Shown here: one piece after another, positions 3,647-38,887 of the stretch
How positions within the stretch are numbered: the stretch's first letter is position 1
Layout: every line of letters begins with the position of its first letter
NCBI GenBank assembly: GCA_947589645.1
Contig: CANQCG010000002.1
Span: 6,018 to 70,017, forward strand
Reading direction: 5' to 3'
Source: an uncultured Clostridia bacterium
GTDB lineage: Bacteria; Bacillota; Clostridia; TANB77; CAG-508
DNA length: 64,000 nucleotides
Notes under the pieces: generated by a model
Told to the model about the DNA's origin: nothing
Database searches by the model: none
Seen by the model: only the letters and a program-made list of their open reading frames with translations
Program-made: the position numbers and the translations under genes

Positions 3647-4834
3647 TTAAATTAATGCTTTTGTTTGTCTAGCTATCATTAATTCTTCATTCGTTGGAAT
3701 TAAGTAAACTTTAACTTTAGAATCATGTGTTGATAATTCTTTTTCTTCTCCTCTTATATTGTTTCTATCAATATCAAGCTTTACTCCCATAAACTCTAAG
3801 TTTTTGCAGATACCTTCTCTTATATGAATTTGATTCTCTCCAATTCCACCTGTAAATACTATGGCGTCCATTCCACCCATCGCAACTGCACATTTTGCAA
3901 CATAAGCTGCTACTTCGTAATTGAAGTGATTTACAGCCATTCTTGCTTTTTCGTTTCCGTCATTTGATGCATTTTCAATTTCTCTAAAGTCAGGAGCTAA
4001 ACCACTTATTCCTTGTAAGCCTGATTGTTTATTTAGCATATTTTCTACTTGTTCTGCAGATAAATTTTCTTTTTTCATCATAAATGTTACTACTGAAGGG
4101 TCCATATCTCCGCTTCTTGTTACCATAGGTATTCCTCCAAGTGGTGTAACACCCATACTTGTCTCTACTGATTTTCCACCATCAACTGCACATAAACTTG
4201 CACCTTGGCCTAAATGACAAGTTACAATTTTTAAATCTTTTATATCTTTTCCTAAAATTTCTGCTAGTCTGTTTGCAACATACATATGTGATGTACCATG
4301 AAAACCATATTTTCTTATTCCATATTTTTCATAAAATCTATATGGTATTGGGTATATATATCTTTCTTGTGGTATTGTTTGATGGAATGCTGTATCTACT
4401 ACAACTACCATTGGTTTTCCTGGCATTACTCTTTTGCAAGCTTCTATTCCTGAAATTCCTCCTGGATTATGTAGAGGAGCTAAATCAATAACATCATTTA
4501 GCATTTGTAGTACGTTGTCGTCTATAAGCATTGGCTTTATTATTTTTTCTCCACCATTTACTATTCTATGCCCTATTGCACTTATTTCATCTAAGCTATC
4601 AATTACTTTATATTCTGGGTTTACTAATTGTTTTAATGTAAAATCTATAGCTTCTTCATGATTCATAGCTGGATGATCTATTTGATGTTTTGCTCCATTT
4701 ACTTTATGTGTTATAAATGCTTCTTGCTCTCCTATTCTTTCATATTTTCCTGAAGCTATAACTTCTTCATTTTCCATATTTATTAATTGATATTTAAGTG
4801 ATGAACTTCCACAATTTAAAACTAATATTTTCAT
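3647..4834 (-). CDS. ackA: Acetate kinase
   Basis: MKILVLNCGSSSLKYQL… N-terminus and full-length similarity to AckA. It lies next to pta. Confidence 0.95.
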   Translation of the reverse strand: MKILVLNCGSSSLKYQLINMENEEVIASGKYERIGEQEAFITHKVNGAKHQIDHPAMNHEEAIDFTLKQLVNPEYKVIDSLDEISAIGHRIVNGGEKIIKPMLIDDNVLQMLNDVIDLAPLHNPGGISGIEACKRVMPGKPMVVVVDTAFHQTIPQERYIYPIPYRFYEKYGIRKYGFHGTSHMYVANRLAEILGKDIKDLKIVTCHLGQGASLCAVDGGKSVETSMGVTPLGGIPMVTRSGDMDPSVVTFMMKKENLSAEQVENMLNKQSGLQGISGLAPDFREIENASNDGNEKARMAVNHFNYEVAAYVAKCAVAMGGMDAIVFTGGIGENQIHIREGICKNLEFMGVKLDIDRNNIRGEEKELSTHDSKVKVYLIPTNEELMIARQTKALI

Positions 4835-35210: not shown

Positions 35211-35651
35211 TTATCTTCCGCATCCACAATTATTATTGTTGTTATTATCCATACAATTCATATTGTTCATATAAAATTTCTTCTCAGCTAATTTGTCTTG
35301 TACTCCACGAAGTGCTTCTCCGAATCTTTGGAAGTGTACAACTTCTCTTTCTCTTAAGAATTTTAATGGTTCAATTACATCTGGATTATCTTTACATATA
35401 TCTATTAATTTTTCATAAGTTGCTCTAGCTTTTTGCTCTGCTGCTAAGTCTTCTTGTAGATCTGCTATTGGGTCTCCTTTTACAGCTAATACTGCTGCTG
35501 TAAATGGGTAACCTGCTGCTGCTTGTGGATATACTCCTAGACCATGGTCTGTATAATATGGGTCTAATCCAGCTTCTTTTATTTCTTCTATGCTAGCACC
35601 TTTTGTTAATTGGTGTACTATTGTTCCAACCATTTCTAAGTGTGCTAATTC
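35211..35651 (-). pseudogene. cotJC: cotJC (manganese-catalase-family spore coat protein), 3' portion separated from its 5' portion by the inserted element
   Basis: The reading frame from 35651 gives E LAHLEMVGTIVHQLTKGASIEEIKEAGL…GDPIADLQEDLAAEQKARATYEKLI…FLREREVVHFQRF…. It is collinear with B. subtilis CotJC residues after DIGTEE. Confidence 0.9.
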
Positions 35652-35767
35652 GTTAGTTCCAAAATGTGGTCGTTTGAAGGCTAAAAAAATTTTTATTATT
35701 ATTAAATTACTTTTTTAGCATTTACATTCCATTTTTATTTTCAATTTCTATATCATTTAAAATATCA

Positions 35768-37420
35768 CTATCCTGCTTTATTAATTTTAGGATATAAGTT
35801 TATAATAAAATTTGTTGGATCAGAGTCTTTTCTTATTGATTTTTCTGTTTTTAAATAAGTTACTTGTGTCAAAACTGTTTTTAATAAGTCATTCTTTTCT
35901 TCAGGTGTTTTTAATAAATAATATACATCAAGAACATTTTGTTGGTTAGGAACTAAAATGTGTTTTTCTTTATATACAATTTTTTCTTGTGATAGTTTAG
36001 TTTTATATTCTTCAATGGAGTTATTTACTCGTGCTACATTTTGTGATACTACCTCTACTCTTTCCTTAAACATTTGCTTTGTATAAGTTCCATCTTCTAG
36101 AAAATTATATATGCTTATTAACTTATCATTTTCTTTTTTAACTTCCGCTTCTAATGATTTTATTGTTTCTTCAATTGATTTAATTTTTTTATCATTTATT
36201 TTTTCTATATGCTCTTGATAATCAAATTTATATTGTTGTAACCATTTTTTTAATCCATCTAAAACTTTTTCTTCTATAAGATGCAATTTTGATCCTACAT
36301 TATCACATTTAGTATTAGCACAATATAAAGTAGGTTCTTTGCTATATTTAGTATAAGCCCTTCTTTGCATTTTCTTACCACATTTTGCACAATATACTAA
36401 GCCACATAATGGATTTTGTACTTCATGACATCGTACTACTGGTGATATATTTCGACTTCTTTTAGCTTCTACAATTTTCCATGTTTTTTCATCTATTATA
36501 GCTTTATGCAGTCCATCTACAAGTATATAATCTTTATTTCTAGGTCTTGTATTTTTAAGTTTTTCATCTTCATACACTTTTACAACTTTTCTTGCATTCC
36601 ACTTTATTTTGCCTATATATATAGGATTAGCCAATATATCTTTTACACTAGATTCAGACCATTTATCGTTTTTTCTGGGTTTTAAACCCATTTCATTTAG
36701 TTTTCGTGTTACTTCGTGCAATGATAAGTTATCATAAGCATATAAATCATATATTATTTTAACAGTACTTGCTTCTGAGTTTTTTATTAATGTAAATCCT
36801 TTATCTCCTTTAATTTTAACTCTATCATATCCAAATGGTGCGATACTACCTACATACTTTCCTTCATTTACGGATGAAATTCTTCCCCTTTGAAGTCTTC
36901 TATTAATTGTTTTATATTCTCGTCTTGACATAAACAAACCGAATTCAAAATATTCTTCATCAAATTCATCATTTGGATTGTAAGTTTTCATTGGTGTAAT
37001 TATTTTTGTATCTGAAATTTTAAATGCCTTTGCTACAATTCCTTGATCCATTGTCTCTCCACGGGCTAATCTTTCAACTTCTACTACTAATACACCTTTC
37101 CATTTGCCTTGCCTTACATCTGATAGTAATTTTTGCACTTCTGGTCTTGCCTCAATTGTTTCACCACTTACTATTTCTCTATATATTTTTCCTATTTTAA
37201 GGCTTTTTTTATGTGCTAAATCTAGTAATATTTTTTCATGCCTAGCAAGAGTTTCACCTTCTCCTTTTGCCTCTGCCTCCACATCTGCTCTTGATTTTCT
37301 TAAATATACTGCATATTCATCAAGAATATGTACCTCATAATTATTTGAATAGCCATAATATAAATTGTCCAAAATACCTCCTTTCTTTGTTAATTTTATC
37401 AATCGTTGTGAGTTTAACAT
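35768..37420 (-). CDS. Large serine recombinase (SpoIVCA/SprA/TnpX-like)
   Basis: Resolvase catalytic domain (…AVYLRKSRADVE…VVEVERLARG…), recombinase domain, zinc-ribbon (CGLVYCAKCGKKM…YCANTKCDN) and coiled-coil. An alternative TTG start at 37372 follows an AAGGAGG RBS. Confidence 0.9.
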   Translation of the reverse strand: MLNSQRLIKLTKKGGILDNLYYGYSNNYEVHILDEYAVYLRKSRADVEAEAKGEGETLARHEKILLDLAHKKSLKIGKIYREIVSGETIEARPEVQKLLSDVRQGKWKGVLVVEVERLARGETMDQGIVAKAFKISDTKIITPMKTYNPNDEFDEEYFEFGLFMSRREYKTINRRLQRGRISSVNEGKYVGSIAPFGYDRVKIKGDKGFTLIKNSEASTVKIIYDLYAYDNLSLHEVTRKLNEMGLKPRKNDKWSESSVKDILANPIYIGKIKWNARKVVKVYEDEKLKNTRPRNKDYILVDGLHKAIIDEKTWKIVEAKRSRNISPVVRCHEVQNPLCGLVYCAKCGKKMQRRAYTKYSKEPTLYCANTKCDNVGSKLHLIEEKVLDGLKKWLQQYKFDYQEHIEKINDKKIKSIEETIKSLEAEVKKENDKLISIYNFLEDGTYTKQMFKERVEVVSQNVARVNNSIEEYKTKLSQEKIVYKEKHILVPNQQNVLDVYYLLKTPEEKNDLLKTVLTQVTYLKTEKSIRKDSDPTNFIINLYPKINKAG

Positions 37421-37444
37421 ATGACAGACAAAATTACAAATGTT

Positions 37445-37582
37445 TTAAGAATATTCTGAAATTTTCTTTATAGTTAGACTTAATAATATATCGACTATTT
37501 CTTGATCTTTACCTTTTGCTATAATGTCTCTATCATCAACCCTAATTATTGTTTTATCAATTTTATATTCTTCTATAATCAT
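37445..37582 (-). CDS. Small ORF (45 aa) immediately upstream of the recombinase gene; candidate accessory factor or RDF
   Basis: ATG at 37582 follows GAGGTG. The sequence is MIIEEYKIDKTIIRVDDRDIIAKGKDQEIVDILLSLTIKKISEYS. The stop lies 24 nt before the recombinase ATG. No homology recognised. Confidence 0.4.
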   Translation of the reverse strand: MIIEEYKIDKTIIRVDDRDIIAKGKDQEIVDILLSLTIKKISEYS

Positions 37583-37832
37583 ATACACACCTCTAATCAA
37601 TGTGTATGCAAAAAATTCAAAAACTTGTATTATTTTTAATAGCCTTTCAAATTTATTTTTTAGGTACATCAATACCTGTTAATATATCTTTTTTTTAATG
37701 ATAAGAATGAGTTTTACTATTATATTTATATAGAACTGTTCCAGTTTCTATTTGCCATAATAATTGGAAAGAGCAATAAGAATATCCCACATACAATAAA
37801 TATTATAGATAACTTTTTTCTAGTTTTTTTAT

Positions 37833-38090
37833 ATGGGCAAAATAGGAGAAATGAATTCTTTAATTGCTCTTAGGGATGAGAATATATTTGATTCGTTAAA
37901 ATATATTCATGTCCCAACGGCTATTTTTCATGGAAAAGAAGATAAAATATGTCCTTTTCCTATGGCAGAAATTATGCATAATAATATTCATGCTTCAATT
38001 TTATTTCCATTTGAAAATGCTGGGCATGGTACATTTTATGATGTTAAAGATGAATTTAATAGGACTTTAATAAAATTTTTAAATTATTAA
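37833..38090 (+). pseudogene. 5'-truncated alpha/beta-hydrolase gene remnant (C-terminal ~70 residues only)
   Basis: …IHVPTAIFHGKEDKICPFPMAEIMHNNIHASILFPFENAGHGTFYDVKDEFNRTLIKFLNY matches only the C-terminal His-loop region of alpha/beta hydrolases. No nucleophile-elbow region lies upstream. Confidence 0.6.
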
Positions 38091-38638
38091 TTTAATTGTG
38101 AAAATCTGTATATTTTATATTCAACACTTTTTTCTTCTAATAATTTGAAATTACAACTTAAATCTTTATAAAATTTAGACATTTTACTTTTATGTGATTT
38201 TGTAACTATATTGTAAAGTTTTTTTGATTTATCTAGAATTTTTTTTCTATTCTCGGGTTTATTGATATACGAATATTGTTCTGAAAGTAATCTTTTATAT
38301 CCATAGCTTTTGCTTTTAATGTCTAATAGATAGACACATTCTTGAGGTACAGGTATCATATCTGAAAATCTAATAATACCTAAATCATTTTTTGTTTTGG
38401 TATTTATTATTTTAAAAAAAGTTAAATTATCTTTATAAGTTTTATGTCTTTGTTTCGGAGAAAATAGAGGTGCAAAATAATAATGTTCTCTAACAACTAT
38501 TACAACTCCTATGTAAGGTCTTTTTTGATTTTTATTATATGCAATATGTTTATCAAATTGGCTTAAATAATTAATGTAATTATCATCTATAATATAAAAA
38601 TTTAATTTTCCTAATTTTATTTTCTTATTATTTTTCAT
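38087..38638 (-). CDS. toxN: Type III toxin-antitoxin system toxin, ToxN/AbiQ-family endoribonuclease
   Basis: Collinear with Pectobacterium ToxN: FY.I…Y..YL..FD…IG.V……Y.APL.SPK..H…FK…LG.I…MIP…LLD…YKR.L..Q…CNF.LLEEK. The ATG at 38638 follows GGAGG. Confidence 0.85.
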   Translation of the reverse strand: MKNNKKIKLGKLNFYIIDDNYINYLSQFDKHIAYNKNQKRPYIGVVIVVREHYYFAPLFSPKQRHKTYKDNLTFFKIINTKTKNDLGIIRFSDMIPVPQECVYLLDIKSKSYGYKRLLSEQYSYINKPENRKKILDKSKKLYNIVTKSHKSKMSKFYKDLSCNFKLLEEKSVEYKIYRFSQLN

Positions 38639-38660
38639 AAATTCCTCCATTTACAAATAT

Positions 38661-38686
38661 AGGGGATACTTTTATAAGTACCCCCT
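38661..38686 (-). terminator. Hairpin between the antitoxin repeats and toxN (attenuating terminator, as in toxIN loci)
   Basis: AGGGGATACT-tttata-AGTACCCCCT (9 of 10 bp), placed 23 nt upstream of the toxN start. Confidence 0.55.
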
Positions 38687-38694
38687 AATTTTTC

Positions 38695-38860
38695 AGGAAA
38701 CTCGTTTATAGTTAAACTAAAGGCTCGTTTCTAACCTAATGTTCAATAGGATATTCGTTTATAGAATTTTCATTCTAAAGGCTCATATCTAACCTAATGT
38801 TTAAAATGCACTTGTTTATGAAGTTAATCAAAGGTTTGTGCTAACCTAGTTTATTTGATA
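38695..38860 (-). ncRNA. toxI: Candidate type III antitoxin RNA (ToxI-like): three imperfect tandem repeats of ~52-58 nt
   Basis: Repeats on the plus strand: …TCGTTTATAG-N-CTAAAGGCTCGTTTCTAACCTAATGTT (38702-), …TCGTTTATAG-N-CTAAAGGCTCATATCTAACCTAATGTT (38755-), …TTGTTTATGA-N-CAAAGGTTTGTGCTAACCTAGTT (38812-). They lie between a promoter and the toxN gene. Confidence 0.65.
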
Positions 38861-38887
38861 AATTGCTTTATCAATATTAGTATATTC

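Follow-up and report, generated by a model that had tools for sequence, protein, structure and literature searches.

The spore-coat gene cotJC, a member of the Mn-catalase family, is split in two in a 64,000-nt stretch of DNA from an uncultured Clostridia bacterium (contig CANQCG010000002.1, positions 6,018 to 70,017; hereafter the window), and a 4196-bp element that encodes a large serine recombinase (LSR) lies between the two parts. Judged by comparison with related sequences, the junction at 35642–35670 is very probably an attachment (att) site of this LSR, with strand exchange at a GA dinucleotide (TC on the plus strand of the window) in codon 82 of cotJC. The overall picture of an LSR element that occupies cotJC and would be excised during sporulation explains the data best, and we consider it likely. 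An earlier note on this DNA had read the two junctions as attL and attR of an LSR. That reading is backed by the full three-domain LSR found in the element, by relatives of the enzyme that sit at the same codon, and by contiguous attP sites.

The junctions and the interrupted gene

The features of the junctions and of the gene are as follows.

35642–35670, plus strand: left junction, on the C-fragment side of cotJC (attR in the cotJC reading direction); predicted host half-site to 35649, crossover TC at 35650–35651 and P-type element arm from 35652
35642–35651, 35652–35658 and 35659–35670: pieces of the left junction, GTGCTAATTC, gttagtt and CCAAAATGTGGT
39827–39838 and 39838–39847: pieces of the right junction, ACAACATTTTGG and GTGCTCATTC
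35650–35651: predicted crossover dinucleotide TC, C-fragment copy; GA on the coding strand, nucleotides 1 and 2 of the Glu82 codon
39846–39847: predicted crossover dinucleotide TC, N-fragment copy
35652–35681: LSR-proximal arm of the predicted attP, GTTAGTTCCAAAATGTGGTCGTTTGAAGGC when read outward from the centre; assigned by half-site alignment to the consensus nTnnGnnC…TATC/GGTC
39817–39845: LSR-distal arm of the predicted attP, ATGAGCACCAAAATGTTGTCAATAGCTAAA on the coding strand, outward from the centre
35623–35681 and 39817–39875: half-site stretches
35652–39847, minus strand: cotJC-intervening element, 4196 bp
39848–40090, minus strand: cotJC N-terminal fragment, residues 1–82 of the longest open reading frame (ORF); Pfam Mn_catalase profile positions 1–66
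35211–35651, minus strand: cotJC C-terminal fragment, residues 83–227; Pfam Mn_catalase profile positions 66–197
40823–40422, minus strand: cotJA (Pfam CotJA)
40425–40042, minus strand: cotJB (Pfam CotJB)

We re-read the letters of the window, and all of the coordinates and sequence statements in the earlier note were borne out. The two junctions agree at 9 of 10 positions in register, for which the chance in a fixed register is ~1.8e-4. Joining the two ends of the element gives ACAACATTTTGG-16 nt-CCAAAATGTGGT. The product is an 11/12 inverted repeat with the T and the C of ATTC on either side of its axis. This repeat, which had been pointed out before together with its dyad on TC, exceeds chance by both measures that we applied: with 25-nt arms, 17 of 25 positions are symmetric about TC (binomial P = 5.6e-5), and among 200,000 random joins made from the window a fraction of 1.05e-4 matched that symmetry. 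The putative attP formed in this way has the character of an LSR site, being an imperfect inverted repeat centred on a non-palindromic dinucleotide.

The stretch GTGCT(A/C)ATTC had been described as a core shared by the two junctions. The likeness itself is real. Its role as a core did not hold up, since identity between junctions spans anything from 2 bp to ~16 bp in related loci. The stretch is instead a resemblance of an attP arm to an attB arm, a form of half-site mimicry in which no block of identity is required.

The interrupted gene lies on the minus strand and is identified as cotJC by the CotJB and CotJA genes directly upstream of it. The N-terminal fragment meets a TGA stop one codon past the junction, and its homologues begin at Met18 of the longest ORF. 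In the Mn_catalase Pfam profile, position 66 is where the match of one fragment ends and that of the other begins. When the host flanks are joined in silico, they read GGC ACC GAA GAA TTA GCA CAC (GTEELAH, within …GTEELAHLEM…), so that an intact and conserved reading frame is restored. The in-frame join had been noticed earlier, and it is confirmed by an ungapped alignment of the joined protein with intact CotJC homologues, in which GTEELAHLEMVG is invariant. Intact alleles that are 94–95% identical to the joined protein fall inside the 90%-identity cluster that also holds the C-terminal fragment of the window. In two further loci, L081 and L082, an unbroken cotJA-cotJB-cotJC operon lies next to a Sua5-family gene, the same neighbor as in the window. 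The empty attB reads GGAACTGAAGAATTAGCACAC in both, and L081 provides an empty site at the nucleotide level. The exact joined CotJC protein and the exact 45-aa protein encoded by a small ORF of the element (described below) are both absent from a collection of 15 billion proteins.

The motif EE(L/F)xHLEM around the join aligns with the solved Mn catalases 4R42 and 1JKU and corresponds to the E-x-x-H metal-ligand motif of these enzymes. The crossover codon is that of the second Glu of the EE pair. In Bacillus subtilis, cotJC is expressed in the mother cell under sigma-E. With mother-cell expression taken from that species, the element lies inside a mother-cell-expressed sporulation gene.

One further symmetry lies at the right end of the element. 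At 39747–39830, GTCAATAGC, which is the outer part of the LSR-distal attP arm, forms an inverted repeat with GCTATTGAC about 50 nt away, downstream of a 187-aa ORF. Similar hairpins overlap the LSR-distal arm in L025, L041, and L087, and the repeat may be a terminator or an accessory site. A terminator called at 39835–39858 in a promoter scan is merely the dyad symmetry of the N-side junction.

Related loci, contiguous attP sites and the crossover dinucleotide

A scan of 185,579 species genomes for related LSRs returned 79 loci, mostly from metagenome-assembled genomes (MAGs) of gut Clostridia, and 70 of them contain enough sequence past the recombinase gene for a junction search. A cotJC junction at codon 82 was found within 600 nt of the 3′ end of the LSR gene in 37 of the 70, and both orientations occur. 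The proportion is 22 of 33 among LSRs at least 55% identical to that of the window, and relatives with 40–84% identity sit at the identical cotJC codon.

Both junctions could be read in 16 loci, the window included. The dinucleotide GA, at nucleotides 1 and 2 of the Glu82 codon, is common to the two junctions in 16/16. In L001, L055, and L073, whose LSRs belong to different lineages and are 84%, 45%, and 40% identical to that of the window, the bases on either side of GA differ between the junctions, and GA is the sole identity. These data support the TC (GA) crossover proposed in the earlier note. In the window itself, the restored gene would retain a TGA stop if the exchange took place to the left of the A/C mismatch, and a crossover within GTGCT was rejected on this ground. 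Together, these observations pin the crossover without any symmetry argument.

We then aligned 32 attP half-sites, read outward from GA, and calculated their information content. The half-sites peak at offsets 2, 5, and 8, with T, G, and C, respectively (1.4–1.8 bits), and carry more information at offsets 19–20 and 23. The consensus outward from the centre is nTnnGnnC followed by a distal TATC/GTC motif. T2, G5, and C8 are present in both attB arms as well. This three-base periodicity matches the non-wobble codon positions of both attB arms: with the centre on codon positions 1 and 2, cotJC has its wobble positions at offsets 1, 4, 7, and so on, in a symmetric arrangement on the two arms, and the attP arms do not conserve those offsets. 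The distal TATC lies at offsets 17–20 in attP and at 12–15 in the left attB arm; its counterpart in the right attB arm is weak. A 5-bp displacement of the outer, zinc-domain motif is the expectation from structural models of serine integrases, and only the left attB arm shows it clearly. A plausible rationale for the choice of target is that an exact match would be required at just two bases, positions 1 and 2 of a conserved Glu codon.

The attP obtained by joining the two ends of the element exists in relatives, as contiguous sites of the predicted geometry occur in two phages and in L009. These sites bear out the imperfect-palindrome attP of the earlier note. The Paenibacillus larvae phage phiIBB_Pl23 (NC_021865; L084 in our set) encodes an integrase 46% identical to the LSR of the window, and its attP, TTACTGATATCCCGATGGTTCATAC-TC-TTCTGTACCATGGTGTTATCAATAA, lies 19 nt past the integrase stop codon (positions ~4093–4145). 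The right arm of this site is the reverse complement of cotJC GGT ACA GAA GA. The faecal phage MT835739 (L083), with an integrase 48% identical, has an attP …GTGCCAAC-GA-ACTGGCTCAT… 31 nt past the stop (positions ~4057–4108) that reads GAA CTG GCT CAT (ELAH). Centred on GA or TC, the two phage sites mimic cotJC codons 79–85, which implies that cotJC would be the chromosomal integration site of both phages. The searchable literature yielded no description of att sites in cotJC, or of cotJC as the target of the P. larvae phage. In L009, whose LSR is 82% identical to that of the window, the site is AAACGACTACTTCTTGGTGCGAAC-GA-ATGTGTACCATTATGATGTCAATA, ~130 nt past the LSR stop, with the spacing of the joined ends of the window. 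Arms homologous to the LSR-proximal arm occur in L005, L009, and other loci, and the window-type pair of arms is contiguous as attP in L009 and L087.

Relative to cotJC, the dinucleotide is always GA. Relative to the LSR gene, it is either GA, as in the window, or TC, as in L005 and phiIBB_Pl23, and elements with homologous LSR-proximal arms insert in both orientations. According to a citing preprint, the central dinucleotide alone sets the orientation of insertion (Ghosh et al. 2003, as cited in 10.1101/2021.11.05.467528). The comparison across loci matches this rule, because the same host site is used with GA or TC with respect to the integrase gene.

A pattern scan of viral contigs found no free attP of the window type. 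The single match in a metagenome, L087, was rejected as a circle: it is a chromosomal locus with an intact internal attP beside a cotJC junction. Complete two-armed attP-like sites occur in several loci that look chromosomal (L087 positions 1003–1034, L041 ~11785, L009 ~11678, L071 ~4851, and L004 1670/1746). In L087 and L041, the attP-like site lies only ~30–50 nt from the cotJC N-junction, and that of L087 is identical to the attP reconstructed for L049. Intact or hybrid sites made of two P-type arms stand near or far from the junctions in L087, L041, L004, and L071. Such internal sites may stem from tandem accretion, from a second attP of opposite polarity in the same element, or from circles in the assembly.

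The element, its proposed excision and alternative readings

The element contains the LSR gene, a 45-aa ORF, an esterase gene fragment, a ToxN/AbiQ toxin gene with repeats, and the 187-aa ORF.

35768–37372, minus strand: LSR, 534 aa from a TTG start at 37372 with an AAGGAGG ribosome-binding site
37444–37581, minus strand: 45-aa ORF (MIIEEYKIDKT…KKISEYS), 72 nt upstream of the LSR gene; candidate recombination directionality factor (RDF)
37600–37609, minus strand: conserved box GCATACACAT, ~20 nt upstream of the ATG of the small ORF
38087–38650, minus strand: ToxN/AbiQ-family toxin (Pfam PF13958, E = 1.3e-39; PADLOC AbiQ, E = 1.9e-43)
38660–38801, minus strand: direct repeats and terminator directly upstream of toxN; ~58-nt repeats in 1.9 copies (38695–38801) and a hairpin (38687–38660)
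39178–39741, plus strand: 187-aa ORF, with weak matches to a D5-like regulator only

The longest ORF of the LSR begins at 37420, and its database homologues have 534 aa. Pfam assigns the protein an N-terminal, catalytic Resolvase domain (PF00239), a Recombinase domain (PF07508), and a Zn-ribbon (PF13408). It has the three domains of an LSR; its coiled coil was judged from the sequence and from the alignment with SprA. The match to the PHROG 95 integrase has E = 7e-90, and the closest solved structure is SprA/YokA of SPbeta (PDB 9dxh, E = 1e-41, residues 36–540), in which YLRRSR aligns with the catalytic motif YLRKSR. Searches of Pfam and PHROG detected no phage structural or transfer genes in the element, and neither the list of ORFs nor Pfam reveals a transposase or a tyrosine recombinase. 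The element does not contrast in composition with its host, the GC content of the two being similar.

These observations suggest the following course of events. The junction would consist of a host attB half-site, the crossover dinucleotide, and an attP half-site of the element, left by the integration of a small non-phage element into cotJC. The LSR would bind two quasi-symmetric half-sites on each partner, make cuts staggered by 2 nt at TC (GA on the coding strand, nucleotides 1 and 2 of the Glu82 codon), rotate one half of the complex, and religate the strands. Exchange between 35650/51 and 39846/47 would release a circle of 4196 bp with the attP …GACCACATTTTGGAACTAAC-GA-ATGAGCACCAAAATGTTGTC… and restore cotJC in frame; the expected products are an attB that spans GGCACCGAAGAATTAGCACAC and an attP that spans GGAACTAACGAATGAGCACC. 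Excision would probably need the 45-aa protein as its directionality factor. If this protein is made from a −10-like CATA(C/T)A box, then excision would be confined to the sporulating mother cell, as with skin, SPbeta, and gin, and the chromosome of the spore would keep the element.

The 45-aa ORF is kept at the same position in ~27 loci, with 49–73% identity. We infer that it encodes an RDF, by analogy to GirX of gin (42 aa, without a motif; PMC5595907) and CD1234 of the Clostridioides difficile skin element (72 aa; PMC5025042). Within the box upstream, CATAnAnnT is invariant in 17 aligned loci, and the sequence farther upstream diverges. The CATA(C/T)A box resembles the −10 element of mother-cell sigma factors of the sigma-E/K class and is akin to the sigma-E −10 boxes of C. 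difficile, that of CD1234 included (PMC7438776 Table S6). The motif GCATACAYAT is not enriched in the window (10 occurrences against 11.5 expected), so it is conservation across loci that carries the promoter argument. A scan for sigma-70 promoters gave 43 sites against 46 expected and was therefore uninformative. On balance, we lean slightly towards excision that is developmentally programmed and specific to the mother cell.

Several observations weigh against this account. There is no convincing −35 element near the box. Its match to the consensus of sigma-E, and likewise to that of sigma-K, is imperfect, and the −35 fits neither spacing. The 45-aa ORF has no relatives in searches of Pfam, PHROG, and the PDB and so resembles no known RDF; an absence of detectable relatives is usual for RDFs. 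The databases contained neither an excised circle nor a restored cotJC of the source organism, and pattern scans for a free circle of the window type came back empty. Some of the related LSR genes carry stops or frameshifts. In addition, the divergence of the LSRs barely correlates with that of CotJC (rho = 0.22, p = 0.15), and because the correlation is weak, it offers no argument for a long vertical residence of the element, and the selection seen on cotJC fragments may predate the insertions. Finally, B. subtilis can sporulate without cotJC, so selection for precise developmental excision would be weaker than for sigK.

The main rival reading is that of an integrated mobile element of the ordinary kind, or of what is left of one in decay, in whose carriers cotJC is inactivated and any excision serves horizontal transfer without a tie to sporulation. 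The weak promoter assignment, the damaged recombinase genes, the dispensability of cotJC in B. subtilis, and the poor correlation, which suggests horizontal movement, all favor such an element, as does the presence in the LSR clade of true temperate phages with cotJC-mimicking attP sites, whose target need not be developmental. Against it stand the lack of transfer or phage genes and the conservation, in ~27 loci, of the small ORF and its CATA box ahead of the LSR gene. Every split fragment that we examined is open and conserved; the split C-terminal fragments have a median dN/dS of 0.13, indicative of purifying selection. Moreover, all characterised LSR elements in mother-cell sporulation genes (skin, SPbeta, vfbin, vrin, gin, and yin) are excised in sporulation (PMC5595907, PMC4191935, PMC10747680). 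We therefore consider a simple mobile element or remnant unlikely, while granting it a real share of the probability.

The remaining alternatives concern the exchange itself. Taken alone, the ATTC identity in the window would permit exchange at AT or TT as well as at TC, and a site in the GTGCT block may also be envisaged. We regard all of these as very improbable: the bases that flank GA differ between the junctions in the three loci named above, AT is palindromic and could not fix the orientation of insertion, exchange in GTGCT would run into the TGA already described, and the dyad axis of both the reconstructed attP and the contiguous phage attP sites falls on GA/TC. A transposon target-site duplication with terminal inverted repeats, or the core of a tyrosine recombinase with the LSR as a mere passenger, would account for the short direct repeat that both ends share and the inverted repeats close by, but we rejected both as mechanisms and give them almost no weight. 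The element encodes no such enzyme, its direct repeat is not exact and in relatives is reduced to 2 bp, LSRs with as little as 40% identity use precisely the same nucleotide position, and the inverted repeat becomes a dyad only once the ends are joined, as is expected of an attP.

In the cargo, the repeats, the strong hairpin terminator, and toxN have, as read from the sequence, the layout of a type III toxin-antitoxin or abortive infection system with a predicted antitoxin RNA. A third, degenerate copy of the repeat lies beyond the 1.9 copies upstream of toxN. An Rfam scan of the element gave a chance-level miRNA match only, and no family covers the toxN-proximal repeats.

Known sporulation-gene elements and the wider pattern in cotJC

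Among mother-cell sporulation genes, sigK, spsM, spoVFB, spoVR, gerE, and yabG are established hosts of interrupting LSR elements, and the element of the window is a well-supported further example of this skin-like kind. The closest analogue in design is gin, which lies in gerE of Bacillus cereus ATCC 10987 and encodes the integrase GirC and the 42-aa RDF GirX (PMC5595907). Each is a small element of non-prophage type that carries an LSR and sits in a sporulation gene of the mother cell. In both, the imperfect inverted repeat of attP surrounds a central dinucleotide, a short stretch shared by the junctions includes the crossover, and a very small protein without motifs is encoded near the integrase. 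The two differ in the target (cotJC rather than gerE), in the host (here a low-GC gut Clostridia MAG), in the ToxN/AbiQ cargo of the present element, and in the number of recombinases (three in gin and a single one here).

The nearest solved recombinase is SprA of the SprA/SprB system of SPbeta, which is inserted in spsM of B. subtilis (PMC5499854, PMC4191935; PDB 9dxh/9dxd). There, too, a mother-cell gene for spore surface maturation is interrupted and excision restores the frame. The target gene is a different one, SPbeta is an active phage of 134 kb whereas the present element spans 4.2 kb and lacks phage genes, and a PDB search gave no sign of a sequence relationship between the candidate RDF and SprB. 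The regulatory model that we propose is that of skin in sigK (SpoIVCA in B. subtilis; CD1231 with the RDF CD1234 in C. difficile). In C. difficile, a small RDF under sigma-E control restricts excision to the mother cell (PMC5025042). The target here is a structural gene for a coat protein/catalase rather than a sigma factor, and the promoter class is one that we infer. Because cotJC is not a sigma factor gene, its interruption should not gate the sporulation programme.

For cotJC itself, a search of the literature for att sites in this gene turned up only a single sentence, in which the cotJC of Laceyella sacchari is said to be interrupted by a "skin-like element" (Galperin et al., bioRxiv 10.1101/2022.02.25.481979). 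That element occupies the same gene and bears a recombinase; its host belongs to the Bacilli, and the mention gives neither att sites nor a crossover. The phage phiIBB_Pl23 shares the half-site pattern of the window, and its attP mimics GGT ACA GAA GA of cotJC. It differs in being a complete temperate siphovirus with the opposite polarity (TC with respect to the integrase gene), and its site of integration is a predicted one.

cotJC is also split at other positions: near residue 50 in L062, L065, L067, L073, and L076, near residue 120 in L004, L012, L014, L015, and L026, and near residue 153 in L018 and L004. Where a recombinase was detected (at the residue-120 and residue-153 sites and in L073 at residue 50), the inserted element has its own distant serine recombinase, with 23–27% identity. 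The residue-153 junction (GCAGCAGA|G) again lies on the GA of a Glu codon. Some cotJC genes are in three or more pieces, and one 90%-identity cluster contains, besides intact proteins, truncated ones that end at residues 84, 121, and 153. In L080 (positions 668–2577), an intact cotJC that is 91% identical to that of the window has resolvase and LSR genes immediately upstream, in the expected place of cotJB; these genes may be part of a further element, located at the beginning of the operon or close to it.

We tentatively put forward a broader picture, which we hold with clearly less confidence than the assignment of the junction. The cotJC gene of gut Clostridia and Paenibacillaceae would be a landing pad with several sites for several unrelated lineages of LSRs. 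One clade, which extends from isolated Paenibacillus phages to gene-poor mini-elements of 3–9 kb, would target the GA of Glu82 in EExxH, recognize offsets 2, 5, and 8 in a manner blind to wobble positions on both arms, and insert in either orientation by means of a flipped dinucleotide, with other lineages splitting this 0.6-kb gene at residues ~50, 120, and 153. The 45-aa ORF would then represent a new family of RDFs. If this is true, then some genomes would need two to four independent excisions, timed to the mother cell, for a single coat protein.

The assignment also explains two "Mn catalase" fragments, which would otherwise be annotated as pseudogenes, as one cotJC gene and a defined element of 4.2 kb, and this matters for predicting the capacity for sporulation from MAGs. 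The related loci constitute a natural series of serine integrases (40–100% identity) with inferred pairs of attB and attP, a defined dinucleotide in both polarities, and a candidate 45-aa RDF, which is useful for studies of integrase specificity and for orthogonal tools in genome engineering. With these elements, cotJC, at several positions, joins the small set of sporulation genes in which excisable elements have settled.

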